This document shows, piece after piece, positions 1,511 to 46,101 of a stretch of DNA of 64,000 nt. Positions within the stretch are counted from its first letter, which is position 1, and every line of letters begins with the position of its first letter. The DNA is from Nitrososphaerota archaeon (lineage in GTDB: Archaea; Thermoproteota; Nitrososphaeria_A; Caldarchaeales; Calditenuaceae), in contig JAVQSZ010000005.1 of NCBI GenBank assembly GCA_033581555.1, forward strand, positions 41,199-105,198, read 5' to 3'. The translations under genes and the position numbers were made by a program. The notes beneath the pieces are model-generated. The model had not been told where the DNA came from, did no database searches, and saw nothing but the letters and a program-made list of their open reading frames with translations.

Positions 1511-3003
<1,493 letters not shown>

Positions 3004-3289: not shown

Positions 3290-3997
3290 ATGGGCTTGAG
3301 CGCGGCCGACGGCCTCGGGTTCAGGACCGGCCTCGAGCCGCTGGACTCCGCGACCGGAGGGCTGCCCCGTGGCAAGCTCCTCGTGATATCCGGAGAGGAG
3401 AAGTCGGGCAGGACGAGCCTCCTCCTCCAGCTCTGCGCGATCGCGGCCTCGGAGGGACGGAGGTGCCTACTGATCGACCCGGCATCGAAGCTGCACGCCT
3501 CTAGACTGAAGTCGGTCTGCGAGGCGCGACGGGCCGACCTCTCCGTGATCTGGATATCCTCGCCGCAGACGCTCAGGGAGCAGACGAGGTACATCCTCAA
3601 GGCCGCAGAGCTCCTGGACGAGGGCGGCGTGCTGGCCGTCGACAACTTGACCTACCTGTACCGCGTCGAGCTTACCGGAGACCTCGCCTCGGACAGGCCG
3701 AAGTTCATGGAGCTGGCGTTCGAGTTAGCGGCCTTGAAGCATGCCGCGCTCAGGTGGGAGTCCCTCTCGGCGGTCGTCTTCGACGTCCACGACGTCCCAT
3801 CGGCAGGTCCCTTCGCGACCAGGCCCGTATCGGAGAACCTGCTGAGGCACTTCGCGGACCTGAGGGTCCACCTGACCAACGTCTCGGGGGAGCTGAAGTC
3901 GCTGACGTACGAGCTCGGCGAGCTCTCGGGTAAGCTGACCGTGAGGACCACGTCCTCCGGGATCGAGCCGGTCCCTCAACCGCCCGCCGTCTTCTGA
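3290..3997 (+). CDS. RecA-superfamily ATPase (RadA paralog / KaiC-RadB-like) with non-canonical Walker A
   Basis: 235 aa; P-loop-like SGEEKSGRTSL (GKT changed to GRT), followed by hhhhD Walker-B-like LLIDPA; size and layout like crenarchaeal RadA paralogs (aRadC). Confidence 0.5.
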   Translation: MGLSAADGLGFRTGLEPLDSATGGLPRGKLLVISGEEKSGRTSLLLQLCAIAASEGRRCLLIDPASKLHASRLKSVCEARRADLSVIWISSPQTLREQTRYILKAAELLDEGGVLAVDNLTYLYRVELTGDLASDRPKFMELAFELAALKHAALRWESLSAVVFDVHDVPSAGPFATRPVSENLLRHFADLRVHLTNVSGELKSLTYELGELSGKLTVRTTSSGIEPVPQPPAVF

Positions 3998-4365
3998 AGG
4001 AAGGCCAGCAGGACCGTAAGGAGCCCGAGGATGATCAGGCCGGCCGAGGCTGCCGCCACACCGCCGCCCCTGGTGCCGAGCCTGCCCGTAAGGCCGAGGT
4101 GGAGGACGAAGAGGCCGCCGGTCGTCAACGAGTACCCCAGCGCGACCAACACGAACTCCGAGATCGTCTGGCCCGTGAGCGACGGGAAGATCGCCTGCCT
4201 CCCGTAGAGCGGCGGTGGGGCTGAGACGAGGACGTAGACGAGCCCGCTCGCGATGAGGATCGACGCGATGACTGCCGCGACGCCCAGGAACGACTTCAGC
4301 CTCTCCGAGCCTCCCCTGTAGGTCAGGACCTGGAAGACGAACCTGGCGACCCTCCGTGCCATCAT
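3976..4365 (-). CDS. hypothetical membrane protein
   Basis: 129 aa, 3-4 hydrophobic helices, lies at 3' end of the opp operon on the minus strand. Confidence 0.35.
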   Translation of the reverse strand: MMARRVARFVFQVLTYRGGSERLKSFLGVAAVIASILIASGLVYVLVSAPPPLYGRQAIFPSLTGQTISEFVLVALGYSLTTGGLFVLHLGLTGRLGTRGGGVAAASAGLIILGLLTVLLAFLQKTAGG

Positions 4366-4387
4366 GGCTCGAATCGGACGCCCGGCT

Positions 4388-5395
4388 TTATGGATGACCC
4401 CCCGAACCCTCGGGCGATTCGTAGAGGTGGCAGGCGACGTACCTCTCCCCCCTGACCCTGACGAGGGCCGGGTCCACGACGTCGCACTTGCCCTTCATGA
4501 AGAAGGGGCACCTCGGGTGGAACCTGCAGCCCGAAGGCGGGTTCACAAGGCTCGGCGGCTGGCCCGGAGCCACCTTCCTCATCCTGAACCTGTTCGCCGG
4601 GTCTGGGTCCGGTATCGCCTCGATGAGGGCCTGCGTGTAGGGGTGAAGGGGCTCGCCGAGGACCTCCCTTGTGGGCCCGAGCTCGACGATCTTCCCGGCG
4701 TACATGATCGCGATCCTCTCGGAGAAGTACTTCGCGGTCGCCATGTCGTGGGTGATGTAGAGGAACGAGACGTTGTGCTTCTGCTGGATCTCCTTGAATA
4801 GCAGCAGTATCTCGACCCTAATCGAGGCGTCGAGCATCGAGACGGGCTCGTCCGCGACGACGAAGTCCGGGTTCGTGATGATCGCCCTCGCGATCGCGAC
4901 CCTCTGCCTCTGCCCCCCGCTGAGCATGTGCGGGTACTTGGACGCGAAGAACTCGGGAGGCGTCAGCCTGACGTCCTCGAGCGCCCTCATCACCATCTCC
5001 CTCCTCTCCTCAGGCGTCCCGATCCCGTTGACGACGAGCGGCTCCTCGATGATCCTGTATACCGTGAAGACGGGGTTCAGGCTGGCGTAGGGGTCCTGGA
5101 AGACGACGCCCATCCTCCTCCTGATGCGCTTCATGCCCTTCTCGTCGAGTCTCGTTATGTCGGTCCCGTCGAAGACTATCCTGCCACCGCTCGGCTTGAC
5201 CAGTCCCAGTAACGCTCTGCCGAGGGTCGTCTTGCCCGACCCGCTCTCGCCGACCAGCGCGATCGTCTCGCCCTTAGAGACCTCGAGGCTGACCCCGTCC
5301 ACCGCCCTAACGTACCCGGCCGTCCTCAGGAACCTCCTTATCGGGAAGTAGACCTTCAGGTCCTCGACCGAGATCAGGCGTCCGGCGTCAGCCAC
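4388..5395 (-). CDS. oligopeptide/dipeptide ABC transporter ATP-binding protein (OppF/DppF-type)
   Basis: Walker A GESGSGKTT, signature LSGGQRQR, Walker B VVADEP, C-terminal oligopeptide-transporter extension with Cys cluster CRFHPRCPFFMKGKCD. Confidence 0.85.
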   Translation of the reverse strand: MADAGRLISVEDLKVYFPIRRFLRTAGYVRAVDGVSLEVSKGETIALVGESGSGKTTLGRALLGLVKPSGGRIVFDGTDITRLDEKGMKRIRRRMGVVFQDPYASLNPVFTVYRIIEEPLVVNGIGTPEERREMVMRALEDVRLTPPEFFASKYPHMLSGGQRQRVAIARAIITNPDFVVADEPVSMLDASIRVEILLLFKEIQQKHNVSFLYITHDMATAKYFSERIAIMYAGKIVELGPTREVLGEPLHPYTQALIEAIPDPDPANRFRMRKVAPGQPPSLVNPPSGCRFHPRCPFFMKGKCDVVDPALVRVRGERYVACHLYESPEGSGGHP

Positions 5396-6386
5396 CGCCC
5401 CTCTCCTCCATCAACCAGCAGGCGACCAAGTGGTCCGAGTTGACCCTGAACTCCCTCGGGACCTCTACGTCGCACTTGCCCTTCATGAAGAACGGGCACC
5501 TCGGGTGGAACCTGCAGCCCGAAGGCGGGTTGATCAGGTCCGGAGGCGTCCCGGGTATGAAGGTCGGAGGCCTATCGGCCCTCAGCATCGGCACGCTCTC
5601 GAGGAGCAGCTTGGAGTAGGGGTGCTTCGGTTCGGTGTACACTTTGTCCGCGGGGCCGAGCTCGACGATCTTGCCCCCGTACATCACGCCTACCCTGTCG
5701 GCCAGCTCGCTGGCGAGCGCCAGGTCGTGGGTGATGAAGATGTAGGTCAGGCCCAGCTCCGCCTTCAGCCTCTTCAGCAGGTTCATGATGTTCGCCTGCG
5801 TCATCACGTCCAGCGCAGAAGTCGGCTCGTCGAGGATGATCAGCTTCGGCCTGGTGATCAGCGCCATCGCGATGAGCGCCCTCTGCTTCATGCCGCCGCT
5901 CAGCTCGTGGGGGTACCTGTTGACGACGGACCTCTCAAGCCCCACCAGCTCGAGCGCCTCCTCGGCCCTCTTGAGCGCCTCCTCCTTCGGGACGCCCATG
6001 TTGACGATCAACGACTCAGCGACCTGGAAGCCGACCCTCAAGACAGGGTTGAGCGAGTTCATGGCCCCCTGGAAGACCATCGAGATCCCTCCGACCCTGA
6101 CTCTCCTCCTGAACTCCTCGTCGTTCATCCGCATCAGCTCCATCCCGTCGAAGAGTATCGAGCCCCGGTACTCCGCAACGTTCCTCGGAAGGATCCTGAT
6201 AATAGCTAGGGCGGTTGACGACTTCCCGCTCCCGCTCTCGCCCACCAACGCCAGCGTCTCGCCCAACCCGACGGAGAAGCTCACGCCGTCGACCGCCTTG
6301 ACCTCACCGGCCCTCGTGGAGTACTTCAGCACCAGGTCGGTGACTTTGAGCAGAGGTTCGCCCGCCTCCGGACCCAAGGAACTCAC
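5388..6386 (-). CDS. oligopeptide/dipeptide ABC transporter ATP-binding protein (OppD/DppD-type)
   Basis: Walker A GESGSGKSS, LSGGMKQR, ILDEPTSALD, same C-terminal Cys cluster; overlaps OppF start by 8 nt. Confidence 0.85.
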   Translation of the reverse strand: MSSLGPEAGEPLLKVTDLVLKYSTRAGEVKAVDGVSFSVGLGETLALVGESGSGKSSTALAIIRILPRNVAEYRGSILFDGMELMRMNDEEFRRRVRVGGISMVFQGAMNSLNPVLRVGFQVAESLIVNMGVPKEEALKRAEEALELVGLERSVVNRYPHELSGGMKQRALIAMALITRPKLIILDEPTSALDVMTQANIMNLLKRLKAELGLTYIFITHDLALASELADRVGVMYGGKIVELGPADKVYTEPKHPYSKLLLESVPMLRADRPPTFIPGTPPDLINPPSGCRFHPRCPFFMKGKCDVEVPREFRVNSDHLVACWLMEERGGG

Positions 6387-12104: not shown

Positions 12105-12230
12105 CCCCCGGTAGCTCAGCCTGGTAGAGCGCCCGGCTGTAGGGTCAGGCCGTGGCCGTGGACCCGCCAGCCTACCAGGCCACACGACGCGGGGACCGGG
12201 TGGTCGCAGGTTCAAGTCCTGCCCGGGGGA
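12105..12230 (+). tRNA. tRNA-Tyr(GUA) with 52-nt intron after position 37
   Basis: Acceptor CCCCCGG/CCGGGGG, D-arm GCTC-AGCCTGGTA-GAGC, anticodon stem CCCGG/CCGGG with loop CUGUAG|intron(12143-12194)|A, T-arm GCAGG-TTCAAGT-CCTGC, C1:G72 and A73 (archaeal Tyr identity); no encoded CCA. Confidence 0.65.
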
Positions 12231-12330
12231 TTAGGTAACGCGCATATCCTGTTCCACAACTGGTGGTGGAGATCGAATAACGCCCAGTGAGTCATGTCCC
12301 TGTTGTTAGGAAATCAACCCATCACGTCAA

Positions 12331-12403
12331 GGCCGCGGGTGGGACTCGAACCCACGACCGCCGGGTCCACAGCCCGGAGTGCTGCCACTACACCACCGCG
12401 GCC
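12331..12403 (-). tRNA. tRNA-His(GUG)
   Basis: Minus-strand sequence G(-1)+GCCGCGG acceptor, anticodon loop CUGUGGA (GUG), T-arm GTGGG-TTCGAGT-CCCAC, discriminator C73 pairing with extra G-1 (His hallmark). Confidence 0.8.
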
Positions 12404-12502: not shown

Positions 12503-12844
12503 TCACTTGATGGCGTCGACTCCTGACTCGCCTGTCCTTATGCGTATCGCCTGATCGATCGGATGGACGAAGATCTTGCCGTCACCGATGTCACCCGTCC
12601 TCGCGGACTCCATGATCACCTTCACCGCTTTATCCACCTCTTCATCTGGAACGACGAGCTCGATCTTCAGCTTAGGCAGCATATCGACTCTGTACTCGTG
12701 GCCTCTGACCCGCCAGGATATGCCCAACTGCCGTCCCCTTCCCCTGACCTCGTAGACGGTTATCCCTACGAAGCCCGCCGACTCAAGCGCCCTCTTGACG
12801 TCTTCAAGCTTTTCAGGTTTTATTACAGCATGGACCATCTTCAT
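12503..12844 (-). CDS. glnK: nitrogen regulatory protein P-II
   Basis: 113 aa; T-loop RGRGRQLG...Y, C-terminal DGKIFV...IRIRTGE; directly downstream of amt. Confidence 0.88.
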   Translation of the reverse strand: MKMVHAVIKPEKLEDVKRALESAGFVGITVYEVRGRGRQLGISWRVRGHEYRVDMLPKLKIELVVPDEEVDKAVKVIMESARTGDIGDGKIFVHPIDQAIRIRTGESGVDAIK

Positions 12845-12854
12845 GGAACATCAC

Positions 12855-14093
12855 CTAGGACACATATTCTGCGTGTTGTGATATGTCAAGTCCTATGACC
12901 TCTTCCCGCGGTGGAACCCTAAGACCTATCGAGACGTCGATGAGCTTAACGATCAGCAACGTGACCACCGATGCGAAGGCCCAGGTCGCAGCTACACCGA
13001 TCAGCTGAGCCGCTATCAATGAAGGGTTGCCTGCCAGCAGACCGTTGACACCTGCGGGGTTGATGGAGGCATCCGCGAATATCCCAGTCGCTATCGCTCC
13101 CCAGGTACCACCCACGCCGTGAACACCCCAGACGTCGAGCGAGTCGTCAACTCCGAACCTCTGCCGCGCGTTAACCGCGATTGAGCATAGAACTCCTGCA
13201 ACAGCACCTATGACCAGCGCGGACGAGACGCTGACGAACCCCGCGGCCGGAGTTACTGCGACCAGACCTGCGACCGCACCGCTGGCTGCAGCGATGCTGC
13301 TGAACTTTCCCCTTGTGTAGTAGTTCGCGATGAGCCATGAAACGGCACCCGCAGAAGCAGCGGCGTGGGTGTTCAGAAAAGCCTGTGACGCCAACGAGCC
13401 GGATGCGAGCGCGCTGCCGGCGTTGAACCCGTACCATCCGAACCACAGGAGCGCAGCTCCCAAGATGACATAGGTCGGGTTACTTGGCTCAAAGGAGGAG
13501 TTGCCATAGCCGAGTCGCCTACCGAGAACGAGTGCAGCCACCAACGCCGACACTCCAGAGCTGATGTGGACGACTGTACCTCCCGCGAAGTCAAGCGCCC
13601 CTATCCCCCTGAGCCATCCACCGCCCCCCCAAACCCAGTGAGCCAGCGGAGAGTAAACGAACGTCGACCAAGCGACGAGGAAGATCAGGAAGGACCCGAA
13701 CTTGACCCTCTCCGCGAACGCACCCGCGATCAGCGCGGGCGTGATCACGGCGAACATCATCTGGTATATCGCATACGTTGAGTGTGGCACGGTCGCGGCG
13801 TAGTCGGGGTTTGGATCAGGGCCGACACCGTTCAGGCCGAACCATTCCAGACCACCGATGAGACCGAATCGATCAGGTCCGAAGGCCAGGCTGTATCCCC
13901 AGAGTATCCACACGATCGAGATGACGCCGACCGCGGCGAAGCACTGGAACAACGTCGATACGACGTTCTTCTTCCTCGCCAGCCCCGCGTAGAAGAACCC
14001 GAGCCCAGGCGTCATTATCATCACCATCGCCGTCGAGGTCAGCAGCCACGCAGTATCTCCCGTGTCCGTTCCCACGGACATCGACCCCCACAT
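12855..14093 (-). CDS. amt: ammonium transporter
   Basis: 412 aa, about 11 TM; Amt/MEP motifs (DFAGGTVVHISSG, GAVAGLVAVTPAAG); amt-glnK pair. Confidence 0.9.
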   Translation of the reverse strand: MWGSMSVGTDTGDTAWLLTSTAMVMIMTPGLGFFYAGLARKKNVVSTLFQCFAAVGVISIVWILWGYSLAFGPDRFGLIGGLEWFGLNGVGPDPNPDYAATVPHSTYAIYQMMFAVITPALIAGAFAERVKFGSFLIFLVAWSTFVYSPLAHWVWGGGGWLRGIGALDFAGGTVVHISSGVSALVAALVLGRRLGYGNSSFEPSNPTYVILGAALLWFGWYGFNAGSALASGSLASQAFLNTHAAASAGAVSWLIANYYTRGKFSSIAAASGAVAGLVAVTPAAGFVSVSSALVIGAVAGVLCSIAVNARQRFGVDDSLDVWGVHGVGGTWGAIATGIFADASINPAGVNGLLAGNPSLIAAQLIGVAATWAFASVVTLLIVKLIDVSIGLRVPPREEVIGLDISQHAEYVS

Positions 14094-23362: not shown

Positions 23363-23821
23363 GTGGACATGTCGGGAGGCGAGGGCGCCGCGGTCAAGAC
23401 CAGGACGAGGAGGGAGAGATCGGCGGGGTGCGTCGTCTTCCACGTCTCACCGGACGGTCAGAGGAGGTACCTCGTGCTCCATTACCCGAACGGGCACTGG
23501 GACTTCCCGAAGGGCCACGTCGAGAGGGGCGAGGACGACTTCGAGGCGGCCCTGAGGGAGCTCAAGGAGGAGACAGGGATCTCTCAGGTCGAGCCGGTCC
23601 TCGGCTTCAGGCGTGAGGTCTCGTACTTCTTCACGGACTCGGGCGAGCGGGTCGCCAAGACGGTCGTCTACTTCGCGGTGAGGGCCCTGAGCCCAGAGGT
23701 CAGACTCTCTGAGGAACACTTGAGTTACGAGTGGCTCGCCTACGAGGACGCGATGAAGAGGCTCTCCTTCAGGACCTCGAGGGCGCTGCTCGAGGAGGTC
23801 GAGAGGCTGCTCGCGTCGTAG
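23363..23821 (+). CDS. NUDIX hydrolase
   Basis: Nudix box GHWDFPKGHVERGEDDFEAALRELKEETG. Confidence 0.8.
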   Translation: MDMSGGEGAAVKTRTRRERSAGCVVFHVSPDGQRRYLVLHYPNGHWDFPKGHVERGEDDFEAALRELKEETGISQVEPVLGFRREVSYFFTDSGERVAKTVVYFAVRALSPEVRLSEEHLSYEWLAYEDAMKRLSFRTSRALLEEVERLLAS

Positions 23822-24349: not shown

Positions 24350-26092
24350 ATGGTCAAGGTCCACGGGCCGCTCGAGGAGGCGAGGCCTGCGCTGAGGAGG
24401 GTCTACGTCAGGGAGGTGGTGCTCGAGAACTTCATGTCGCACGAGTACAGCAGGGTCAGGGTCTCCAGAGGGATCAACCTGATCACCGGACCTAACGGCG
24501 CCGGGAAGTCCTCGATATTGCTCGGGATATCGGTCGCGCTGGGCCAGAGCTACACCGAGAGGGGCGAGAGGCTCGCGGACCTCATCAGGAGGGGCAGGGA
24601 CTCGGCGAGGGTATCGGTCGTGCTCGACAACTCGCCGGTCGACGGCGAGCGCCCCGTCAGGTCCATCCCGCTGGACACCATCACGATCACCCGTTACATC
24701 AAGAGGACCGGGGAGTACTGGCACTACGTCAACAACAGGTTCAGGACGAAGGCCGAGGTCGACCAGCTCCTCAGGTCGCTGGGGATCAACCCGAACAACC
24801 TCCTGATCGTGATGCACCAGAACATGATAGAGGAGTTCGCGGCCCGCGACGACTCCGAGAAGCTCAGGATGCTCGAGGACGCGGTCGGGCTATCCTCAAT
24901 GAGGGAGAGGATCCTGCAGGCTCAGGAGAGGCTCTCGTCCCTAATGGGCGAGGTGAACGCCGTGAGGAGGGCCCTCGAGGAGGCAGCGGCCGCCGTCGAG
25001 TACTGGAAGTCCGAGGTCGAGAAGCTCTCGAGGAAGAGGGAGCTCGAGTCGAGGAGGACGGCCCTTGAGCTGGAGTTCCTCTGGAGCCTCGCGAGGTCGA
25101 CCGAGCTCGCTGTGAGGAGGAAGTCGGAGCTGCTCGATCAGGTCAGGTCGGAGCTCTTTGGTCTCAGGGCCGAGGAGGCCGAGGTCTCCGAGACGCTGAG
25201 GTCGAGGAGGTCGGCGCTCGCGGAGCTGCTGAGGTCGGGAGGCGGCGACGTCGAGTCGGTCCTGAGGGAAGTCGACGGGCTGATCGAACTGGCGGCGCGG
25301 AGGGGCGTGATCGGGTACAGGATCGGCGAGCTGGAGAGGGAGGGCAGGGCCCTCGAGAGGGAGATCAGGGCCCTCGAGAGGGAGCTCGACGAGAGGGTCA
25401 GGGCCGCGTCGGAGAGGGGGCCGCGGGTCGAGACCGACCGGGAGCCCTCCGAGGTCCAGGAGGAGCTGAAGTTCGTCGCGCTCCAGCTCTCCTCGTTCGG
25501 GACCGTCGTCGGCGAGGCGGAGGAGATGTACTTCATGGCGGACTCGAAGTTCAGGAGCCTCCAGATCAGGGCCGAGGAGCTGGAGCAGAACGTCAGGAGG
25601 GCGCTCGAGGAGGTCGAGCACCGGAAGAGGGTCTGGAGGGAGAAGCTCGAGGAGCTGGTCAGCGAGGTCAACCCCGTCTACGATGAGATCCTCTCCAGCG
25701 TTGGAGGCACCGGCGCGATCAGGGTCAGGGGGCTCGAGGACCCGGCGACCGCGAGGCTCGAGCTCTACGCCGGCTTCAGGGGCAACCCGGCGACGCTCCT
25801 CGACGCGAGGGCCCACAGCGGCGGCGAGAGGGTGCTGGCGACGCTGGGCTTCCTACTCGCGGTCCAATCGAGGGTCAAGTCGCCCTTCAGGGCCGTCGAC
25901 GAGTTCGACGTCCACCTCGACCCGCTGAACAGGGAGAGGATGATGACGATGCTGCTCGAGACCGCCCGGAGGCACGGCGACGTCCAGTACATCATCATCA
26001 CGCCCGGCAGGGTCCCCGAGATGGAGGGCGTCAACCTGATCGTGGTCCAGAACGTCTCGGGCCGCTCCATCGTGACCGGTGGTCAGGGATGA
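24350..26092 (+). CDS. SMC-like ABC ATPase with short (about 250 aa) coiled coil
   Basis: 580 aa; N-terminal LENFMSHEY...ITGPNGAGKSSIL (Walker A), Q-loop-like VMHQN, long coiled coil, C-terminal signature HSGGERVLATL and Walker B VDEFDVHLD; no Zn-hook CxxC so not Rad50. Confidence 0.75.
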   Translation: MVKVHGPLEEARPALRRVYVREVVLENFMSHEYSRVRVSRGINLITGPNGAGKSSILLGISVALGQSYTERGERLADLIRRGRDSARVSVVLDNSPVDGERPVRSIPLDTITITRYIKRTGEYWHYVNNRFRTKAEVDQLLRSLGINPNNLLIVMHQNMIEEFAARDDSEKLRMLEDAVGLSSMRERILQAQERLSSLMGEVNAVRRALEEAAAAVEYWKSEVEKLSRKRELESRRTALELEFLWSLARSTELAVRRKSELLDQVRSELFGLRAEEAEVSETLRSRRSALAELLRSGGGDVESVLREVDGLIELAARRGVIGYRIGELEREGRALEREIRALERELDERVRAASERGPRVETDREPSEVQEELKFVALQLSSFGTVVGEAEEMYFMADSKFRSLQIRAEELEQNVRRALEEVEHRKRVWREKLEELVSEVNPVYDEILSSVGGTGAIRVRGLEDPATARLELYAGFRGNPATLLDARAHSGGERVLATLGFLLAVQSRVKSPFRAVDEFDVHLDPLNRERMMTMLLETARRHGDVQYIIITPGRVPEMEGVNLIVVQNVSGRSIVTGGQG

Positions 26093-26835
26093 GGCCGGTG
26101 GAGGTAAGGGTGGAGGAGCTGAGGAGGATGGCGGCGGCCCTCGAGTCGGTCCTCAGCATGAAGGTCGAGCCCTTCACCGTCAACGTCGCCTCGCTCCTCA
26201 GGAGGCTCAGGTCGATCGTCGAGGAGAGCAGGGACCTCGAGACGGTCGTCCTCGACGCCGAGGTCCTCTACAGGGTCTCGGTGGTCCTGGGGCTCCAGCA
26301 GAGGTACATCCTCCAGAGCGCCTCCTCACTCCTGATCGACTCCCAGCTGGTCGTCGCGAAGGTCCTCAGGTCCGAGCCCCACGAGCTCGCCGCGGCCCTC
26401 GTCTCGGCCTGGCGACCGATCGCGAGGGTCGAGCACGTCACCACACCCCTTCTCGTCAGGGCTTACGAACACTTCCTCTCGCTCCCGGGGAAGCCGGTGA
26501 GGATCGAGGCCGGGCTATCCGCCGAGGAGAGGGCTCCGGGATGGGAGGCCTACGAGGCCGCGTTCGAGGAGGAGCTGAGGTCGCTGAAGTCGGAGCTCGA
26601 GTCCGAGGGAGGCTGGGTCGACTACTGGGAGTTCGTCTCGAGGGAGGGCGAACGCCGGAGGGCCAGCAGGGCGTATCTCCTGAGCTTCCTCATCACCCGA
26701 GGCGAGATTGAGGTCCAGTACGACCCGCTCAGGGAGGAGATCAGGGTAATGGCCGCGACCGCCCCACAGCAGAGGAGGGAGGGCGACGTCCTCTCCCTGG
26801 TGATATCGCTGGGCCGGATGGGGCGGGGCGGCTGA
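26089..26835 (+). CDS. kleisin-like (ScpA-like) protein, translationally coupled to SMC-like gene
   Basis: 248 aa; ATGA stop/start overlap with upstream gene; helical N-terminus and C-terminal RAYLLSFLITRGEIEVQYDPLREEIRV resembling ScpA C-terminal winged-helix consensus (vtFLAiLEL...i.v.Q...f.dI.i). Confidence 0.4.
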   Translation: MRPVEVRVEELRRMAAALESVLSMKVEPFTVNVASLLRRLRSIVEESRDLETVVLDAEVLYRVSVVLGLQQRYILQSASSLLIDSQLVVAKVLRSEPHELAAALVSAWRPIARVEHVTTPLLVRAYEHFLSLPGKPVRIEAGLSAEERAPGWEAYEAAFEEELRSLKSELESEGGWVDYWEFVSREGERRRASRAYLLSFLITRGEIEVQYDPLREEIRVMAATAPQQRREGDVLSLVISLGRMGRGG

Positions 26836-26977
26836 GCGCTAGACCGGTCCATGGCCAATCTCTCGCCCTCTGGGCTTCACTTCCGGCAGGGTTGAGTACC
26901 GGGTCCACTTTCGGGGCGCACTCGGACTTTCGGGAGACCCTCCGTGAATTTCCAGGACCTCGGAGGCCTCAGGGCCG

Positions 26978-27259
26978 ATGGGCAGGACCGTCCCGACGTA
27001 CAGGCAGAGGCTCCTGGCCGAGCTCGAGAGGTGGAAGTGCTTCAGGTCCGCGCTCCTGAGGGACGAGAGGTATGACTTCGACAGGCTGGTGGACCAGGCC
27101 TTCTCCTACGTCCACGCGGGCTCGATGTGCCCCGAGAGGGAGGCGTTCGAGGTGCTGGTGATATCGCTGCTCCTCGCCCACGAGTCGAGGCTCAGGTCGC
27201 TCGAGGGGGCGGCCGGCGTGGAGGCTCCGAGGGTCGGCGCGAAGGGGCTTGATCGGTAG
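26978..27259 (+). CDS. hypothetical small helical protein
   Basis: 93 aa ORF between kleisin-like and PolB-like genes, 11-nt overlap with PolB-like start; no recognisable motifs. Confidence 0.3.
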   Translation: MGRTVPTYRQRLLAELERWKCFRSALLRDERYDFDRLVDQAFSYVHAGSMCPEREAFEVLVISLLLAHESRLRSLEGAAGVEAPRVGAKGLDR

Positions 27260-29432
27260 GCTGCTGGACCTGAACTTCACGCCCGACGGCGAGGCGGTCG
27301 AGCTCTGGCTCAGGCTCGGCGAGTCCGAGGTCGAGAGGGTCCGAGTCGAGTGGATGCCCTCGGTCTGCGCGGTAGGGCCCGGAGGCGCGCTCGAGGAGCT
27401 CGCGAGGGCGTTCTGTGAGCGCTCGGAGCTGGTGACGGCCTCCGAGGAGCCCGGGAGGGATCCCAGGCCGGCGTTGAGGATCAGGGCGAAGGCCTGGGAG
27501 AGGAGAGAGGTCGCGAGGCTTATCGAGTCGTCCTTCGGAAGGTCAGGAGTCAGGGTCTACGACGTCGACGTCCCGGCGCTCCAGCAGTTCCTCTATGAGC
27601 ACGGGCTCTTCCCGACCGCGCTGGTCGAGGTCTCCGGAGACCGGCTGAGGACCATCGACTCGAGGGAGGACGCGGACTACGACGTCTCGTGGGTCAGGGT
27701 CGCGGAGCTCGAAGTCTCGACGCGGCGAGGCTCAGCTTACCCGGGCCTCGACGAGCCCCTGGGTTCCGTGAGGCTGACCTCGAGGGAGGGGGAGGTGGAG
27801 CTGGACGGCGACGAGCCCGGCGTCCTCGAGGAGCTGATGAGGGCGGTGGAGCCCTTCGACGTGCTGTTGGTCAAAGGCGGCGACTCTTTCGCGATGCACT
27901 ACCTCCGCCACAGGGCGTCGGTGAACGGCGTCGAGCTCGAGCTGGGGAGGGAGAGGTCTCCGAGACCGAGGAGGGGCTCGAGGGCCTACTGGAGCTACGG
28001 CAGGGTCTACAGGAGGCACAGCGCCTTCAGGTTGAGGGGAAGGGTCCACGTCGACCCTCTCAACTCCTTCGTCTACTCCCACACGGGGCTCTTCGGCCTC
28101 CTCGAGGTCGCGAGGACCTGCGTAGTCCCGCTCCACGACGCCGCAAGGTACACGATCGGGCAGTGCATGACCTCCCTCCAGTTCGAGGTCGCGAGCAGGA
28201 GGAAAGCGCTGGTGCCCTGGAGGGCCGGGAGACCGCTCTACTTCACCCTCGGGGAGCTCAGCGTGATGGACAGGGGAGGACTCACGCTTGACCACAGACC
28301 CGGAGTCTACTGGGGAGTCGCGGAGGTGGACTTCCAGAGCATGTACCCGATGATCATCCTGACGAGGAACGTCAGCGCGGAGACCGTGAACTGCGGGTGC
28401 TGCGGCGGCCGCGGGACGCCGATCCCGGAGATAGGAGGCCACACCTGCTCGAGGAGGGTAGGGCTGGTCCCGGAGGCGATATCGCTCCCTCTCAGGAAGA
28501 GGCTCGCGTACAAGTCGATGCTTAGGGAGGGAAAGGGCGACCCGGAGGTCCTCAGGGCGAGGTCGGACGCGCTGAAGTGGGTACTCGTCTCCTCCTTCGG
28601 GTATCTGGGCTTCAGGAAGGCGAAGTTCGGGTCTAGGCTCGCCCACATGGCCGTCTGCGCCCACGCCAGGGACGCGCTGCTGAGGGCGGTAAGGGTCGCG
28701 GAGCGAATGGGCTTCGAGGTCGTCCACGGGATCGTCGACTCGCTCTGGGTCAGGAGGGAGGGTGCAGCCGAGGAGGATTACTCGGAGCTGGTGAGGGCGA
28801 TCGAAGAGGAGACCGGCCTGCCCGCGGCCCTCGAGGGGACCTACAGGTGGATCGCGTTCCTCCCCTCGAAGTCCTCCCCCCTCAGGCCCGTGAACGGGAG
28901 GTACTTCGGCTTCAGGACCGACGGCAGGGCCAAGTTCAGGGGGATTGAGGCGAGGAGGTCGGACACGCCGCCGCTGGTCGCGAGGATGCAGCTGGAGATG
29001 CTCGAAGTCCTCTCGAGGGTCGAAGCCCCGCAGGACCTGCCTGGAGCGGTGGAGGAGTGCTTCGGTGTGCTGAGGAGGTACGAGAGGGACCTGGTGCTGG
29101 GGAGGGTCGGAGTGGAGGACTTGGTGGTGACGGTGAGGCTCTCGAGGGACCCCTTCGGCTACTTCAACAGGGTCAGGCAGGCGGTCGCCGCGAGGAGGCT
29201 CCTGAGGATGGGCGTGGAGGTGGGGGCCGGGAGCGTCGTCAGCTACGTCGCCCTCGGGGACAGCTCCGCGCCCTACCCATCGGAGAAGCCCATAAGTCCG
29301 GCCTGTTGCTCGACGGAGTTCTACCTGAACGCGCTCAGAAGGGCCGCGGAGACGATCCTCTCGCCGCTGGTCCGTGCGGTCGCTGGGGCACGCGGCGGAC
29401 CAGTCCCCGTCAGGGCCTCAGCAACACCTTGA
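27249..29432 (+). CDS. family-B DNA polymerase-like protein with degenerate exonuclease motifs and altered motif C (PolB2/Dpo2-like)
   Basis: 727 aa; N-terminal LLDLNFTPDGEAVELWLRL like PolB N-domain; Pol motif A VDFQSMYPMIIL, motif B KWVLVSSFGYLG, motif C HGIVDS (canonical YGDTDS has lost first Asp); Exo I/II/III acidic residues not conserved (AELEV, GDSFAMHYL). Confidence 0.75.
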   Translation: MIGRLLDLNFTPDGEAVELWLRLGESEVERVRVEWMPSVCAVGPGGALEELARAFCERSELVTASEEPGRDPRPALRIRAKAWERREVARLIESSFGRSGVRVYDVDVPALQQFLYEHGLFPTALVEVSGDRLRTIDSREDADYDVSWVRVAELEVSTRRGSAYPGLDEPLGSVRLTSREGEVELDGDEPGVLEELMRAVEPFDVLLVKGGDSFAMHYLRHRASVNGVELELGRERSPRPRRGSRAYWSYGRVYRRHSAFRLRGRVHVDPLNSFVYSHTGLFGLLEVARTCVVPLHDAARYTIGQCMTSLQFEVASRRKALVPWRAGRPLYFTLGELSVMDRGGLTLDHRPGVYWGVAEVDFQSMYPMIILTRNVSAETVNCGCCGGRGTPIPEIGGHTCSRRVGLVPEAISLPLRKRLAYKSMLREGKGDPEVLRARSDALKWVLVSSFGYLGFRKAKFGSRLAHMAVCAHARDALLRAVRVAERMGFEVVHGIVDSLWVRREGAAEEDYSELVRAIEEETGLPAALEGTYRWIAFLPSKSSPLRPVNGRYFGFRTDGRAKFRGIEARRSDTPPLVARMQLEMLEVLSRVEAPQDLPGAVEECFGVLRRYERDLVLGRVGVEDLVVTVRLSRDPFGYFNRVRQAVAARRLLRMGVEVGAGSVVSYVALGDSSAPYPSEKPISPACCSTEFYLNALRRAAETILSPLVRAVAGARGGPVPVRASATP

Positions 29433-34272: not shown

Positions 34273-35538
34273 GTGTGGGAGGAGGAGTACAAGCGGAGGT
34301 ACGTCTTCGCCGCCGATTACGGGACCAGCGACTACAAGTACGGGCCGATAACGCTCGGCGAGCGGCCGCAGGTCATCGAGAACAGGGGCTACTTCCCGGA
34401 GCCCTCGATCGTCTCGAGGATAATGGGCGTCGAGAGGGAGGTCGTCGTGGGCAAGGACGTCGTGCTCTTCCTCGAGAGCGGCGCGGACTTGCTGAGCAGG
34501 ATGGTTTACCCTATGAGGAGCGGGATCGTGGGCAAGGACGACGCGAGGGCATGGAAGGTGATAAGGGAGCTGACGAGGGCCTCACTGGAGGAGTTCAGGC
34601 CGAAGGGCGTGGGGTTCAACGGGTTTTACGTCGTCGCGGCGCTCTCCGCGGTCGCACCGAGGTACATGTACGAGCGGCTCTTCGAGGTCCACTCCGAGCT
34701 CGCGAAAGAGGGACTGGTCCACTCCTCGACGATCATACCGCAGCCCCTCGCCGTCGCCATCGCCCACAAGGCGACCTCATGCGTCGTCGTGGAGAGCGGG
34801 CACGGAAACACCCAGGTCACGCCGATCTCGAGGGCCCCGATCAGGGGAGCAGTCGTGGCCCTGAACAGAGGAGGGGCCGACGCGAACGCGATTACCGCGG
34901 AGATCCTCAAGGACGCGGGGTACGGCGACCTCGCGAAGGAGGAGGCGCTCGTGAGGAGGGTGAAGGAGCACCTCGGCCTGCTTCCGCTCGACTTGGACCG
35001 CGCGGTCTCCTTCGCGAGGTCGAACCCCTCCCTAGTCCATAAGGCGATCAAGGTCCCGGGGACCAGGATCAGGATCGACCTCGGAGAGAACTCTTGGGCG
35101 AGGTTCCTGATCGGCGAGTACGTCTTCGACCCGAACAAGGAGGTCTTCGAGAGCTACTTCAAGCGCGGGATGCCCAGGCCGAAGGACGTGAAGTTCGGCG
35201 ACACGGTCTTCTACGGCACCACAACGGTGGCCGACGCGATCATCTCCGCGGTCGAGAAGTGCCCGGTGGAGCTCCAGCCTTACCTCTACTCGCAGATCAT
35301 CCTCTCGGGAGGGAACCTTTCGTGGTCGGTCCCGCAGGAGCTGAGGGGCGTGGCCTCTGACGCGGCCGCCAGGGTCAAGAAGGACCTCTCGGAGAGGGGA
35401 GTGGAGAACGTCAACGTCAGGTCCTCCGAGGAGCCCCAGTTCACGGTCTGGAGGGGCTGCATAGTCTTCGGGTACTCGGTCCCCGCGAACTATGAGTGGT
35501 CCTGGGAGAGGATGGAGGGATGGATGAGGTTCAGGTGA
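34273..35538 (+). CDS. crenactin (archaeal actin homolog)
   Basis: 421 aa; actin-fold phosphate-1 VFAADYGTSDYKYG, GIVGKDDARAWKVIREL, phosphate-2 VVESGHGNTQVTPI, adenosine motif IILSGGNLSWSVPQEL; size matches crenactin (about 430 aa). Confidence 0.85.
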   Translation: MWEEEYKRRYVFAADYGTSDYKYGPITLGERPQVIENRGYFPEPSIVSRIMGVEREVVVGKDVVLFLESGADLLSRMVYPMRSGIVGKDDARAWKVIRELTRASLEEFRPKGVGFNGFYVVAALSAVAPRYMYERLFEVHSELAKEGLVHSSTIIPQPLAVAIAHKATSCVVVESGHGNTQVTPISRAPIRGAVVALNRGGADANAITAEILKDAGYGDLAKEEALVRRVKEHLGLLPLDLDRAVSFARSNPSLVHKAIKVPGTRIRIDLGENSWARFLIGEYVFDPNKEVFESYFKRGMPRPKDVKFGDTVFYGTTTVADAIISAVEKCPVELQPYLYSQIILSGGNLSWSVPQELRGVASDAAARVKKDLSERGVENVNVRSSEEPQFTVWRGCIVFGYSVPANYEWSWERMEGWMRFR

Positions 35539-41443: not shown

Positions 41444-42373
41444 TCAACCGATCGATATCATCAGGTACGAGACCACTATCGAGACGTAGATCAGGGAGAA
41501 GGAGATGAGGGCGGCCACGTGCCACCTCATCCTCCTGACGTAGGAGAGGCCGGCCGCGAAGACGAGGAACGAACCCACCTGGGAGACCACTAGGACCAGG
41601 TTCGCGGTGACGCTGTTCGGGAGCGGGAAGGTAGCCTCGAACTGCCCGAGCCTCATGACCCTATCGACGAAGGCCGCAGCGGGGTAGAGCGACATCGGGA
41701 GGAGCCCGAGCGGCAACAGGGCCAGCATCTGCCTCCACTGACCCCCGAACGTGATCAGCGACGCGAGGAGGCCCTTCACCCCCTTGAACCTGTCGGGCGT
41801 CCGGCCCGAGAGCCGCTCGTAGAGCTCCGAGAGGGCCGAGAAGTACCCGTAGGTGAGGAGGGCCGTGGCCGCGAGGCATACCGCGAGCCCGTCGACTGAG
41901 AAGTGCCTGAACTTGTAGACGTGGAGTATCAGGAGGACGAACTTGCCGTTGAGCAGGAGCGCCACTAGCACCGCCGCGGAGAGGGCCGCCGTCAGCGCCC
42001 CGAACCTCGGCCTTTCGACGAAAGGGCTGATCAGCCACGTGGGGACGAAGACCTGGCTCAGCAGCTCAATTGCCCTGCTCCGCCTCTGGTCAATCTCCTC
42101 GAACGAGAGGTCTTCCCTCGTCTTGAGGTACCTATAGACCTGCTCCCCAAGCTTGGTGAGGACGTAGTTCCGCTTGTCGTCCTGAGCGACGAGGTCCCTC
42201 AGCTGCCTGAGGTTGTAGTAGAGGGAGCCCGTGCTTATCCCGAGCTTCTCCCTCAAGGCCACCGCGCCTATCTTCCCGGAGTCGCCGACGACCTCGATGA
42301 TCCTCCGCCTTATGCGGTGCCGGAGCAGCCACAAGAGCTCCCTCTCGTCGATGCCTTCGGCCAAAATCTTCAC
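41444..42373 (-). CDS. membrane protein with N-terminal ArsR-like winged HTH
   Basis: 309 aa; N-terminal RRRIIEVVGDSGKIGAVALREKLGISTGSLYYNLRQL HTH then about 6 TM helices. Confidence 0.5.
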   Translation of the reverse strand: MKILAEGIDERELLWLLRHRIRRRIIEVVGDSGKIGAVALREKLGISTGSLYYNLRQLRDLVAQDDKRNYVLTKLGEQVYRYLKTREDLSFEEIDQRRSRAIELLSQVFVPTWLISPFVERPRFGALTAALSAAVLVALLLNGKFVLLILHVYKFRHFSVDGLAVCLAATALLTYGYFSALSELYERLSGRTPDRFKGVKGLLASLITFGGQWRQMLALLPLGLLPMSLYPAAAFVDRVMRLGQFEATFPLPNSVTANLVLVVSQVGSFLVFAAGLSYVRRMRWHVAALISFSLIYVSIVVSYLMISIG

Positions 42374-42442
42374 ACCTACGGGTCACCGCGTCCGCTGGAT
42401 ATTTACCGTTTATTCGGCGGGAGCTTCACGGCGGAGCTTCGC

Positions 42443-43585
42443 ATGACCTTAAGAGAAGGCGCTGGGCCTGCACTTCGGATGAAGGACGACGGGCCCGAGA
42501 AGTCGGTCTACAGGGCCGACAAGGAGAAGGAGAAGGTCCTCAGGGAGCTGAAGGCGCTCGGGACCAGGATAGTCAACGACCTGAAGAGGGGGAGATGGCC
42601 CTCGGTCGAGCTGCCGTTGAGGACGACCAAGAACATCGTCTACGACGCGGACCTCAGGCAGTACGTCCTCGGACCGAAGAAGGCGGTCAGAACCCTGAGC
42701 AACATCAGGCACGTCAGGCCCTTCGCGCAGATGGTGTGGCTGATGAAGTTCTCAAAGCAGCTGATCGAGTCGGGGAAGACCTCGACACTCAGGGACACGT
42801 ACTACGTCGCGCTGGGCGAGAACGTCGACTTCGAGGACCAGGACGAAAGCGACGACATCATCTTGGAGCTCGAGAGCGTGCTGGGTCACCCGAGGGAGGA
42901 CTTCAACATCTTCCCGGAGGAGAGGGCCTCGATATACGGGGACCTCGTGATCGAGTACACCGTCCCCGGTTTCAGGGGCAACAGGGTCGACCTATCTACG
43001 CACCCGGACGGGTATGCGATAGGCCCGGCCCTCACGACCGCCGAGTTCGTCAGGTGCGGGGCCGAGATGGTCTTCGTGATCGAGAAGGGCGCGGTCTTCA
43101 GCAGGTTCGTCGAGGAGAGGGCCGACAAGAAGTTCAAGGCGCTGCTGATCCACACCGCGGGCCAGTCTCCGAGGAACTGCAGGAAGCTGATCAGGAGGCT
43201 GAGGGAGGAGCTGGACCTCCCAATCTACGTCTTCGCCGACGCCGACCCCTACGGCGTCCACATAGCCTCGGTCCTAATCCACGGCTCCGCGCTCTCCGCC
43301 CACATCAAGCAGCTCAACGTCCCCGACGCGATCTGGGCAGGCGTCTACGCCACGGACATCACGAAGTACAAGCTGCCCTCGATGAAGTTCACTGACGTCG
43401 ACGAGAAGAGGCTCTCTGAGCTCCTGGAGGACCCCAGGTACCAGGCCGACCCGTGGAGAAGGGAGGTGAAGTACTTCGAGAAGCTGAAGAGGAAGGCGGA
43501 GCTCGAGGCCTTCTCGAAGTACGGGCTCGAGTTCATCGTGAAGGACTTCCTCCCGGAGAGGCTCGCGGAGCTCCAGAAGCGGTGA
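42443..43585 (+). CDS. top6A: DNA topoisomerase VI subunit A (Spo11 homolog)
   Basis: 380 aa from Met 42443 (longer ORF from 42317 overlaps divergent gene); 5Y-CAP region YYVALGENVDFEDQDESDD with catalytic Tyr context, Toprim VFVIEKGAVF...E and ADADPYG (DxDxxG). Confidence 0.8.
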   Translation: MTLREGAGPALRMKDDGPEKSVYRADKEKEKVLRELKALGTRIVNDLKRGRWPSVELPLRTTKNIVYDADLRQYVLGPKKAVRTLSNIRHVRPFAQMVWLMKFSKQLIESGKTSTLRDTYYVALGENVDFEDQDESDDIILELESVLGHPREDFNIFPEERASIYGDLVIEYTVPGFRGNRVDLSTHPDGYAIGPALTTAEFVRCGAEMVFVIEKGAVFSRFVEERADKKFKALLIHTAGQSPRNCRKLIRRLREELDLPIYVFADADPYGVHIASVLIHGSALSAHIKQLNVPDAIWAGVYATDITKYKLPSMKFTDVDEKRLSELLEDPRYQADPWRREVKYFEKLKRKAELEAFSKYGLEFIVKDFLPERLAELQKR

Positions 43586-44732: not shown

Positions 44733-45253
44733 GCGCGCTCCGCGTAAGTCCGTGAGGAGCGAGGCCCCTCGGGTCCGGCAGAGAACCCCTTTTCGGGCCC
44801 TTCGGCCCCTTTGTAATCCCCGGGCCTCACCTTCCAGACCCAGACGAAGCTCGTGAGGAGGTTGACTGAGAAGGCGACCACGACCGCAAGGAAGTACGCG
44901 ACGAGGTGGTTCACCAGCAGGACCTTGTTCAGCAGGTAGAAGGTCGCGAGGTTGACCGCGATGCTCCCGACCCTCGAGGCGTGGAACTTCAACAGCCTGG
45001 CCGCGAACCCGTTGTTCGGGTCTCCGCCTGCGCCGAAGGTCCACCTGTCGTTGATGAGGAAGTTCGCGACGAGCGTGACCTCCGTGACTAGGGCAGCGCT
45101 GAGGAAGGACTCCGCGCCGAGCAGGTCCACCATCCCGAACATCATCGCCTCCGCGAGGACGAGCGTCGCGACCCCTACCGTCACAAACCTGTACGTCCTC
45201 CGGTCCCTAAGGAGCGCGAGCCCGTAGGACCAGGCGACCCTGAGGGCCCTCAA
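44660..45253 (-). CDS. GtrA-family small membrane protein (putative TTG start overlapping nfo stop)
   Basis: 4-TM core RFVTVGVATLVLAEAMMFGMVDLL...NFLINDRWTF...RVGSIAVNLATFYLLNKVL typical of GtrA; long ORF N-terminal extension is antisense to nfo, so TTG at 45253 (TTGA overlap with nfo stop) proposed; unusual low-complexity C-terminal tail. Confidence 0.4.
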   Translation of the reverse strand: MRALRVAWSYGLALLRDRRTYRFVTVGVATLVLAEAMMFGMVDLLGAESFLSAALVTEVTLVANFLINDRWTFGAGGDPNNGFAARLLKFHASRVGSIAVNLATFYLLNKVLLVNHLVAYFLAVVVAFSVNLLTSFVWVWKVRPGDYKGAEGPEKGFSAGPEGPRSSRTYAERAHPLQSSHSSRRCQNHLSSSSTST

Positions 45254-46101
45254 CCCGCGGGCCCCTCGTAGAGCGACCTGAGCACGCCTAGGTCCCTGGA
45301 GTAGTCGCCGCGCTCGTCCTCGGGCGTCTCGATGATCATCGGGAGCCTCCTGAGCTTCGGGTGGTTGATTATCCTCCTGAAACCTTCCTTCCCGATGTTG
45401 CCCAGGCCGATGTGCTCGTGCCTGTCGAGCCTGCTCCCGAGCCCTCCCTTCGAGTCGTTGAGGTGGAGGACCTTGAGTTCTCTGATCCCGACCAGCTCGT
45501 CGAAAGACCTGAGGGTCTCCTCGAGGCCGGTCGCGGACCTGACGTCGTAGCCGGCTGCGTAGAGGTGGCAGGTGTCGAGGCAGACTCCCACCCGATCCCC
45601 GAACGAGAGCCTCCCGAGGATCTCCTTGATCTCCTCGAACCTCGAGCCGATGCTCCCCCTCTGACCAGCCATGTTCTCGAGGAGGAGCACGCACTTCGGG
45701 TCGGCCTCGCCGATCGCCCTCTCGACGGCCCTAACGACCTGAGACGTTCCGACCTCAACTCCCTTCCCGAGGTGGCTCCCGATGTGGCAGACGAGGTACT
45801 CGATGCCGAGCGCGTCGCACCTCCTCAGCTCCTCGACGAGCGACCTGACCGACCTCTCCCACCCCTCCTTCACCGGCGAGGCGATGTTCGGGAGGTACGG
45901 CATGTGGGCTACGACGACCTCGTACCGCGCCTCTCTCCTCCGCCTCCTGAACTCCTCGACCTCCTCGTCCCTCAGCTTCCCGGCCCTCCAGCCCCTGGGG
46001 TTCCTCGTGAAGATCTGGAACGTCGTACACCCGAGCTCCTGGGCCCTATCGACCGACTTCGCGATCGACCCTGCTATGGAGACGTGCGCGCCTAGCAGCA
46101 T
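45250..46101 (-). CDS. nfo: endonuclease IV (AP endonuclease, TIM barrel)
   Basis: 283 aa; MLLGAHVSIAG...HMPYLPN...LLENMAGQ...CLDTCHLYAAGYD...HLNDSK motifs. Confidence 0.9.
   Translation of the reverse strand: MLLGAHVSIAGSIAKSVDRAQELGCTTFQIFTRNPRGWRAGKLRDEEVEEFRRRRREARYEVVVAHMPYLPNIASPVKEGWERSVRSLVEELRRCDALGIEYLVCHIGSHLGKGVEVGTSQVVRAVERAIGEADPKCVLLLENMAGQRGSIGSRFEEIKEILGRLSFGDRVGVCLDTCHLYAAGYDVRSATGLEETLRSFDELVGIRELKVLHLNDSKGGLGSRLDRHEHIGLGNIGKEGFRRIINHPKLRRLPMIIETPEDERGDYSRDLGVLRSLYEGPAG

Follow-up and report, generated by a model that had tools for sequence, protein, structure and literature searches.

The archaeal DNA analysed here, 64,000 nucleotides (nt) of contig JAVQSZ010000005.1 (assembly GCA_033581555.1, positions 41,199 to 105,198 of the forward strand; this whole stretch is called the window in the following), stems from a Caldarchaeales (Aigarchaeota) genome and contains an open reading frame (ORF) for a family-B DNA polymerase (PolB) with unusual catalytic motifs. 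We assume, with a probability of about 0.8, that this ORF encodes the PolB2 (Dpo2) catalytic subunit of the archaeal translesion "mutasome". The window PolB2 is an uncharacterised copy from a metagenome-assembled genome (MAG), and the nature of the PolB2/Dpo2 family as well as its activity can already be found in the literature. The assignment mainly corrects a likely annotation pitfall, i.e. the labelling of such a gene as "hypothetical protein" or as "degenerate, inactive polymerase". The two genes of the proposed module are:

26978..27259, + strand: PPB2 (arCOG07300 / Pfam PF26485 DUF8156), the small helical PolB2 partner, 93 amino acids (aa), ATG start
27249..29432, + strand: polB2, family-B DNA polymerase of the PolB2/Dpo2 family with all five domains, 727 aa, TTG start

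Family assignment and overall fold

The closest database proteins to the window PolB2 come from Aigarchaeota/Caldarchaeales MAGs (91% and 88% identity), and an identical PolB2 is present on the NCBI contig JANXED010000005.1 (GCA_025058175.1). Three further homologues with 38-44% identity and E-values of about 1e-145 (P0070, P0099 and P0049) are all located in iRadA-PPB2-PolB2 operons, an arrangement known for PolB2 (Dpo2) from Makarova et al. (2014, PMC4104785) and from Timinskas et al. (2025, PMC11791011). Such three-gene operons, in which a Rad51-like gene (iRadA) is followed by a DUF8156 gene (PPB2) and then by the PolB gene, were found at the loci L006, L007 and L014; L006 belongs to Bathyarchaeota and has two DUF72 genes nearby, L007 belongs to Thaumarchaeota and carries two DUF8156 copies. 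Furthermore, the motif C of the window PolB2, HGIVDS, is identical to entries in the supplementary table of PMC11791011, which assigns HGIVDSIWV with the IVD signature to haloarchaeal PolB2, HFIVDS to Thermoprotei and HAIVDS to the Nitrososphaerota PolB2 TLX87974.1. The first 399 aa of TLX87974.1 align with the window PolB2 over its N-terminal ~380 aa (33% identity, E=3e-64), and this match covers the N-terminal and exonuclease-like half of the protein, which is hardly matched by canonical PolBs. Solved PolB3 and PolB1 structures showed ~20% identity to the window PolB2 with E-values of 1e-32 or weaker. Judged by pairwise similarity, the window PolB2 is thus closer to operon-validated or catalogued PolB2 proteins than to PolB1 or PolB3. 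The operon-linked homologues, the published signature, the match to TLX87974.1 and the adjacent PPB2 gene confirm the term "PolB2-like", which had been used in the original prediction made from the letters of the sequence.

The annotation as family-B polymerase could be verified by profile searches and structure prediction. The Pfam family DNA_pol_B (PF00136) matched residues 342-682 of the window PolB2 (E=7.8e-18), and among the NCBIfam models, two families named "type B DNA polymerase" (with 665 and 717 positions) scored best rather than those of DNA polymerase I/II. When all chains of the PDB were searched with phmmer, archaeal PolBs were matched, with the P. abyssi enzyme 4flt as best hit (E=4e-32). 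Because E-values down to 4e-32 were obtained against solved PolBs, the similarity cannot be due to chance. The AlphaFold2 (AF2) model of the window PolB2, which was built from 61 homologues, reached a mean predicted local distance difference test score (pLDDT) of 91.1 and a predicted template modelling score (pTM) of 0.89. In a full-length Foldseek comparison with DNA-bound Thermococcales polymerases (KOD, 9N), the template modelling (TM) scores were 0.78 (5omq) and 0.77 (6wya, 9mye), at ~20% identity. Since the model superposes on the Thermococcales PolB along its whole length, the N-terminal domain is present and the five-domain family-B polymerase is complete, as the original prediction had claimed in stating that the protein is no truncated fragment. 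The ORF and its quoted motif strings had been placed correctly as well.

The small gene upstream overlaps with its 3' end the start of polB2 by 11 nt. An identical public gene of the window PPB2 has a precomputed match to Pfam PF26485 DUF8156, and the genes at the PPB2 position of canonical operons likewise carry DUF8156; a Pfam/NCBIfam profile scan of the window PPB2 ORF itself gave no match. A tblastn search with the PPB2 of the Bathyarchaeota operon detected the window PPB2 ORF with E=1.5e-15 and 44% identity. Its N-terminus MGRTVPTYR corresponds to the "MGRT" arm, the key element of PPB2, and contains its Arg3 and Arg9 (PMC11791011). The single-sequence AF2 model of PPB2, which is of low confidence (pLDDT 60.6), consists of a free N-terminal arm and helices at residues 8-28, 34-46 and 53-79, i.e. 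the arm and three helices published for PPB2 (PMC11791011). Both genes are probably co-transcribed and translationally coupled, whereby the co-translation is suggested by the 11-nt gene overlap.

Catalytic motifs and predicted activity

The motifs of the polymerase domain were located as follows:

28323..28361, + strand: motif A, EVDFQSMYPMIIL, aa 359-371, with the invariant metal-ligand Asp D361
28575..28610, + strand: motif B, KWVLVSSFGYLG, aa 443-454, with K443 kept
28725..28742, + strand: motif C, HGIVDS, aa 493-498, aligned with YGDTDS of the Pyrobaculum PolB (5mdn)
28893..28907, + strand: KxY equivalent, NGRYF, aa 549-553, aligned with KKKY of 4flt

Their conservation was evaluated among 116 homologues from the three phyla Aigarchaeota, Bathyarchaeota and Thaumarchaeota. 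Motifs A and B had initially been called intact and motif C degenerate. For motif A, whose earlier-quoted string VDFQSMYPMIIL corresponds to aa 360-371, D361 is invariant. Motif B is intact in part: in the phmmer alignment, the window KWVLVSSFGYLG falls on KILANSYYGYYG, and K443 is present, but V447 and F450, both invariant family-wide, stand at the positions of the Asn and Tyr in the canonical KxxxNSxYG. In motif C, HGIVDS indeed replaces YGDTDS; I495 takes the place of the first DTD Asp, the Tyr is exchanged (H493) and the second, catalytic Asp is retained as D497. However, the impression of decay cannot be maintained, because each of H493, G494, I495, V496 and D497 is present in all or nearly all of the homologues (114-116 of 116). 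This near-invariance, together with the published "IVD" signature, identifies the unusual motif C as a hallmark of PolB2. D361, K443 and F450 are also invariant or nearly invariant, and in the KxY equivalent R551 is nearly invariant and Y552 invariant, with the canonical Lys missing.

In ternary complexes of family-B polymerases, for example RB69 gp43 with D411 and D623, the motif A Asp and the second motif C Asp hold the two catalytic metals, and N564 and Y567 of RB69 at the motif B positions monitor the nascent base pair. The invariant V447/F450 substitutions represent a plausible basis for the tolerance of distorted termini, and the exchanges in motif B (Asn to Val, Tyr to Phe) may be what allows mismatch extension structurally.

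The exonuclease-like domain contains two recognisable motif equivalents:

27702..27716, + strand: ExoI equivalent, AELEV, aa 152-156, aligned with FDIEV of 5mdn
27876..27905, + strand: ExoII equivalent, GGDSFAMHYL, aa 210-219, aligned with the ExoII region NGDNF(D)FPYL

In the ExoI equivalent, D-x-E is changed to E153-x-E155, and the two positions are unconserved among the homologues, where R/W/S/E/F and D/E/R/N were found. At ExoII, the position of the catalytic Asp is occupied by A215 in the window PolB2 and by Leu/Val elsewhere in the family. An ExoIII YxxxD motif is absent from the window PolB2; the best positional candidate is Y276..G280, of which G280 is invariant. The Pfam exonuclease domain matched with E=0.05 only, which is under its cutoff. 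The exchange of the ExoII Asp to A215, the freely varying ExoI columns and the missing YxxxD lead to the conclusion that the exonuclease is dead, as it is family-wide. The original prediction had come to the same result, but its statement that all three exonuclease motifs lack their catalytic acidic residues needs a correction for ExoI, where E153 and E155 are acidic.

Biochemical evidence is available for the Dpo2 proteins of S. islandicus and S. solfataricus with an I-I-D motif C, which were described as a robust but distributive polymerase with no exonuclease that efficiently extends mismatched and lesion-paired primer termini (PMC8764526). Moreover, Dpo2 is a damage-inducible polymerase and required for targeted mutagenesis (PMC7390963; PMC11791011). 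The earlier statement that it is undetermined whether such proteins are inactive or act in translesion synthesis is out of date, given that the Sulfolobus Dpo2 has been reported to be an active extender of mismatches and lesions with no proofreading (PMC8764526). From the invariant D361, D497 and K443 together with the Dpo2 biochemistry, we infer that the window PolB2 is catalytically competent. It would use D361 and D497, and its ability to polymerise DNA without proofreading appears probable, though to a somewhat lower degree than the family assignment. By analogy to the Sulfolobus Dpo2, the main role would be the extension of mismatched or lesion-paired primer ends, following base insertion by another polymerase.

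The comparison with the Sulfolobus Dpo2 reveals several common features, namely the Ile in place of the first motif C Asp (IID there, IVD here), the replaced motif C Tyr, the dead exonuclease, the D(K/R) loop motif, an adjacent PPB2 and an ANTTTC-type promoter element. Differences concern the operon, which in Sulfolobus has the order PPB2-PolB2-iRadA (type 3a), whereas no iRadA is linked in the window, and the position of motif C at 401-403 in the Sulfolobus Dpo2 versus 495-497 here, which leaves ~90 extra residues ahead of it in the window PolB2 with its complete five-domain fold.

The idea of an "inactivated archaeal PolB" reportedly goes back to Rogozin in 2008, and in this line the window protein could be a catalytically inactive PolB paralogue, acting as structural or regulatory subunit only. 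The Ile in place of the first DTD Asp, the Val and Phe in place of the motif B Asn and Tyr, the absent KxY Lys and the dead exonuclease site are consistent with such a role, and Makarova et al. (2014, PMC4104785) inferred inactivation from replacements of this kind. However, an inactive scaffold need not keep the metal ligands D361 and D497 and the triphosphate-binding K443, which are invariant in ~116 homologues. Moreover, the Sulfolobus Dpo2 with the same Ile-x-Asp motif C is a robust polymerase, and Timinskas et al. (PMC11791011) call the prediction of inactivation erroneous. In view of the invariance of the catalytic residues and the precedent of Dpo2, we regard the inactive scaffold as improbable and keep the assumption of an active PolB2.

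Among solved structures, the PolB3-type replicative polymerases (KOD, 9N, Tgo, Pfu and P. abyssi PolB) represent the best structural match, and they have the A-B-C motif order and the C385/C400 pair in common with the window PolB2. In contrast, they possess an active DxE/NxxxFD/YxxxD exonuclease, a DTD motif C, the canonical KxxxNSxYG and no PPB2, and their identity to the window PolB2 amounts to ~20%. Pol zeta (Rev3) and E. coli Pol II are family-B translesion polymerases as well, but they belong to other clades and work with other accessory subunits, so that only a functional analogy can be drawn; like the proposed mutasome enzyme, Pol zeta is an exonuclease-dead extender in a multi-subunit complex.

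A further conserved element lies between motifs A and B:

28392..28448, + strand: four-cysteine cluster C382-x-C384-C385-x14-C400 (CxCC-x14-C), aa 382-400

All four cysteines are invariant in 61 PolB2 homologues. In the alignment with 4flt, C385 and C400 fall on the known disulfide pair of the Thermococcales PolB, and C382 and C384 are extra. The cluster may form a Zn site or a second disulfide; no mention of it was found in the accessible parts of the PolB2 literature.

Proposed PPB2 docking, promoter and third subunit

The proposed contact site for PPB2 is situated ahead of motif A:

28230..28280, + strand: docking loop RPLYFTLGELSVMDRGG, aa 328-344, with the Rad51-type FxxA-like position Y331-F-T-L334 followed by D341-R342-G-G

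D341, R342, G343 and G344 were invariant in 116 of 116 homologues. The D(K/R) motif contacts the PPB2 arm according to Timinskas et al. (PMC11791011), and it is found ~155 residues before motif C in the window PolB2 compared to 148 in S. islandicus (PMC11791011). The only internal pLDDT dip (62-78) of the PolB2 model comprises residues 321-350 including the D-R loop, which fits a loop that becomes ordered only once the partners are bound. According to AlphaFold models published for the family, PPB2 would dock as a trimer, by one MGRT arm, on the D341-R342 loop. The earlier published idea that an Asp at the position of Asp341 could act as shifted stand-in for the missing motif C Asp was rejected, since the motif has been reassigned to PPB2 binding by its own authors. 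No PCNA-binding QxxLxxFF-like motif was seen by eye in the PolB2 C-terminus ...ARGGPVPVRASATP, which is disordered in the model; clamp-binding motifs occur in only a fraction of the PolB2 systems (PMC11791011).

Compared to the mutasome modelled by Timinskas, Timinskas and Venclovas (2025), which consists of PolB2, three PPB2 and iRadA, the window system has the PolB2 signatures, the MGRT arm and the invariant D-R in common. It differs by being a two-gene module, by Y-F-T-L at the FxxA position and by the PolB2 C-terminus, where no PCNA motif was seen. The closest operon-validated relatives belong to the type 1a operons of Bathyarchaeota/Nitrososphaerota with DUF72 neighbours.

The promoter region of the module contains a candidate regulatory element:

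26907..26952, + strand: three ANTTTC motifs in the PPB2-polB2 promoter, candidate DNA-damage-responsive element (DDRE)

In the 142-nt spacer before PPB2, ACTTTCGGG occurs at 26907 (-71 from the ATG) and again at 26926 (-52), followed by AATTTC at 26947 (-31), which may double as TATA-like element. The whole window contains 18 ANTTTC matches on both strands, three of them within these 46 nt, and ACTTTCGG was found elsewhere in the window just once, within the 16S ribosomal RNA (rRNA) gene. ANTTTC is known as the Orc1-2 binding hexanucleotide of the DNA-damage-responsive promoters of Sulfolobales, where the extended Orc1-2 consensus AATAGTTTCRG... is situated at -23 to -55 from the ATG (PMC6061795). 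Counting all 6-mers between -100 and -1 of ten PolB2 operons placed ACTTTC first, with 6 of the 10 loci; its background in 100-nt segments of the same loci was 1.3%, and none of 2000 shuffles had any 6-mer in six of the ten promoters. Judged from the motifs, DNA damage could make an Orc1-2-like activator bind to the two ACTTTCGGG copies (-71, -52) and maybe also to AATTTC (-31), which would result in PPB2-polB2 expression. Among the papers searched, those that mention ANTTTC as damage-response motif refer to Sulfolobales only, and its recurrence upstream of PolB2 in Aigarchaeota and Bathyarchaeota may be new. If true, PolB2 of Aigarchaeota/Bathyarchaeota would also be under the control of the Orc1-2 DNA-damage regulon, for which evidence has so far come from Sulfolobales only, and the ACTTTC recurrence represents a testable handle on the spread of this type of regulation.

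A second short element, the 8-mer ATGGCCAA with the palindromic core TGGCCA, is present at 26851..26858 of the window and at -116, -105 and -120 from the PPB2 start in L002, L010 and L013, respectively. It lies 45-66 nt upstream of ACTTTC in these 4 of 10 PolB2 promoters, all four of which are iRadA-less and range in guanine-cytosine (GC) content from ~47% to 65% or lower; in shuffled sequences, some 8-mer common to four loci appeared in 1 of 500 trials. ATGGCCAA is not a conserved upstream ORF and no significant RNA fold was detected there; it might be a second operator. A structured RNA leader at 26845-26980 was not supported either (fold z-score -1.39, not significant). The scan for bacterial-type promoters and terminators gave nothing, its model being not applicable to archaea. 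In L013, the PPB2-PolB2 pair (3745..6169) is placed within a ribosomal-protein cluster, between S14 and L5 on the opposite strand, with ACTTTC at -54.

Several observations weigh against the assignment to a damage-inducible translesion mutasome. The Sulfolobus Dpo2 is a distant and shorter member of the family, to which the window PolB2 is likened via published motifs and positions. Motif B without the canonical Asn and Tyr and KxY without its Lys could result in kinetics that differ much from Dpo2. The DDRE interpretation rests on a short motif, which is missing in its ACTTTC form from 4 of the 10 PolB2 operon promoters, and no orc1/cdc6 gene turned up in those window ORFs that were scanned; the same is true for SRAP and DUF72, which were found neither among the genes adjoining polB2 nor among the other ORFs scanned. 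Finally, iRadA is part of every modelled mutasome, but no iRadA was detected 23 kb upstream or 34 kb downstream of PPB2-polB2. This search was done by tblastn with two operon iRadAs and with a hidden Markov model (HMM) from ~31 iRadAs against all six-frame ORFs of the window.

The missing linkage is not restricted to the window. In six further Aigarchaeota-type loci (L002, L005, L008, L009, L010 and L013) iRadA is not adjacent, compared to an adjacent iRadA in all three Bathyarchaeota/Thaumarchaeota loci examined. A protein search with the Bathyarchaeota iRadA gave near-identical Bathyarchaeota matches only and is uninformative on Aigarchaeota. The FxxA-like docking position reads F-K-[SP]-[AR] in the three iRadA-linked loci and [YC]-x-x-[LAC] in the seven unlinked ones (Y-F-T-L in the window). 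This correlation between docking residues and iRadA linkage is a hint, not a result, as it relies on n=10 and is confounded by phylogeny. The two-gene PPB2-PolB2 arrangement across seven Aigarchaeota-type loci raises the question whether iRadA is dispensable for the mutasome. It is conceivable, though on balance doubtful, that Caldarchaeales use a streamlined two-component PolB2-PPB2 mutasome without iRadA and that an Orc1-2 damage regulon extends over PolB2 in Aigarchaeota/Bathyarchaeota, maybe with ATGGCCAA as second operator. KaiC-like ATPases with an intact Walker A are situated near PolB2 in L008 and L010 and have no counterpart in the window.

One gene of the RecA superfamily is present at the other end of the upstream region:

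3290..3997, + strand: RadB-like RecA-superfamily gene, 235 aa, no RadA N-terminal domain, Walker A GEEKSGRT (Lys to Arg)

An alternative assumes a complete three-part mutasome with an iRadA encoded elsewhere, possibly by this RadB-like gene. The protein is devoid of the RadA N-terminal domain and exceeds the Pfam Rad51 and RecA cutoffs, with RadB as best match. The Lys to Arg exchange in its P-loop was found without exception in 6 close relatives and in 13 metagenomic ones, with identities down to 34%, whereby the metagenome scan used the GEEKSGRT pattern itself as bait. Moreover, the MAG labelled "NZ988" has both a RadB-like homologue and PolB2, and the PolB2 docking loop is still present. 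However, none of the 15 RadB-like loci (L011, L012 and L015-L027) has PolB2 or PPB2 within 10 kb. The hhalign comparison of the RadB-like protein with operon-validated iRadAs yielded a probability of only 9.9% and the iRadA HMM no match. The iRadAs of the operons are similar to RadA/Dmc1 and their P-loops are fully degenerate; the 3290..3997 protein, in contrast, resembles RadB, and no ANTTTC exists upstream of its gene. With the missing linkage and the weak profile similarity, the RadB-like gene was kept only as a low-probability candidate for the missing iRadA, and the complete three-part mutasome as a whole appears unlikely. The RadB-like family may represent an ATP-binding, hydrolysis-poor RadA paralogue of Caldarchaeales. 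Another candidate, the 248-aa ORF at 26089..26835, was rejected as deteriorated iRadA, because hhalign against the iRadA profile gave 0.9% and no Pfam, NCBIfam or PDB match was obtained; this ORF is not conserved beside PPB2 in relatives and is coupled to an SMC-like gene instead.

Genomic context of the PPB2-polB2 module

The genomic surroundings are relevant for the alternative that the window polymerase is the replicative family-B polymerase of the organism or belongs to a mobile element (casposon or virus). In its favour, no other polymerase was found within the 64-kb window, where the large ORFs encode a solute-binding protein, two molybdopterin dehydrogenases, a thiamine pyrophosphate enzyme and similar proteins. 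The alternative is opposed by the absent proofreading site, by the PPB2 partner and by the damage-type promoter; furthermore, PolD is present in all archaea outside the Crenarchaeota, and PolB1 in TACK archaea, according to Makarova et al. (2014, PMC4104785). The locus is syntenic with the chromosome of a relative, crenactin and DUF354 genes being downstream in both, no cas1, terminal-protein or capsid genes were seen among the genes adjoining polB2, and the GC content of the polB2 region is similar to that of its surroundings. Both versions are therefore considered extremely improbable, and the translesion PolB2 remains the preferred interpretation.

The crenactin gene of the window is located at 34273..35538 on the + strand (NCBIfam crenactin, E=5e-168) and is followed by the DUF354 gene. 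In L002, whose PolB2 is 63% identical to that of the window, a crenactin gene (12606..13874) followed by a DUF354 gene is also found downstream of polB2. The window additionally has, inserted in between on the minus strand, an ADH gene as well as a transporter cluster of the energy-coupling factor (ECF) type (CbiQ, double ABC ATPase, QueT).

Directly upstream of PPB2-polB2 and on the same strand, the region 24350..26835 (+) encodes a short SMC/Rad50-like ATPase (580 aa) and the above-mentioned 248-aa ORF. The ATPase has a Pfam SMC_N match and only partial matches to SMC, "archaea-specific SMC-related protein" and arcadin-4. Its stop overlaps the start of the 248-aa ORF (ATGA), and the pair is not conserved at this place in relatives; by eye, the C-terminus of the 248-aa ORF resembles a kleisin winged helix. 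Further upstream, the contig JANXED010000005.1 begins at window position 23557, i.e. inside a NUDIX (MutT-like) ORF at 23363..23821 (+). This ORF is intact in the window and its NUDIX domain match spans position 23557. The window thus stems from a record that extends beyond this contig.

A complete archaeal 16S rRNA gene is situated at 1514..3003 on the minus strand (Rfam, 1445 bits), divergent from the RadB-like gene. No 23S rRNA gene was found in the window, and the region 1..1513 on the 3' side of the 16S is occupied by a nitroreductase gene, hence the 16S appears to be unlinked from the 23S. Beside a tRNA-His gene at 12330..12403 (-), a 126-nt tRNA match at 12105..12230 (+) was reported by Rfam but not by ARAGORN, which is probably an intron-containing archaeal tRNA. 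Finally, as further genes of DNA metabolism, the window encodes topoisomerase VI subunit A at 42317..43585 (+) and an AP-endonuclease-2 / xylose-isomerase-like TIM-barrel protein at 45250..46101 (-).

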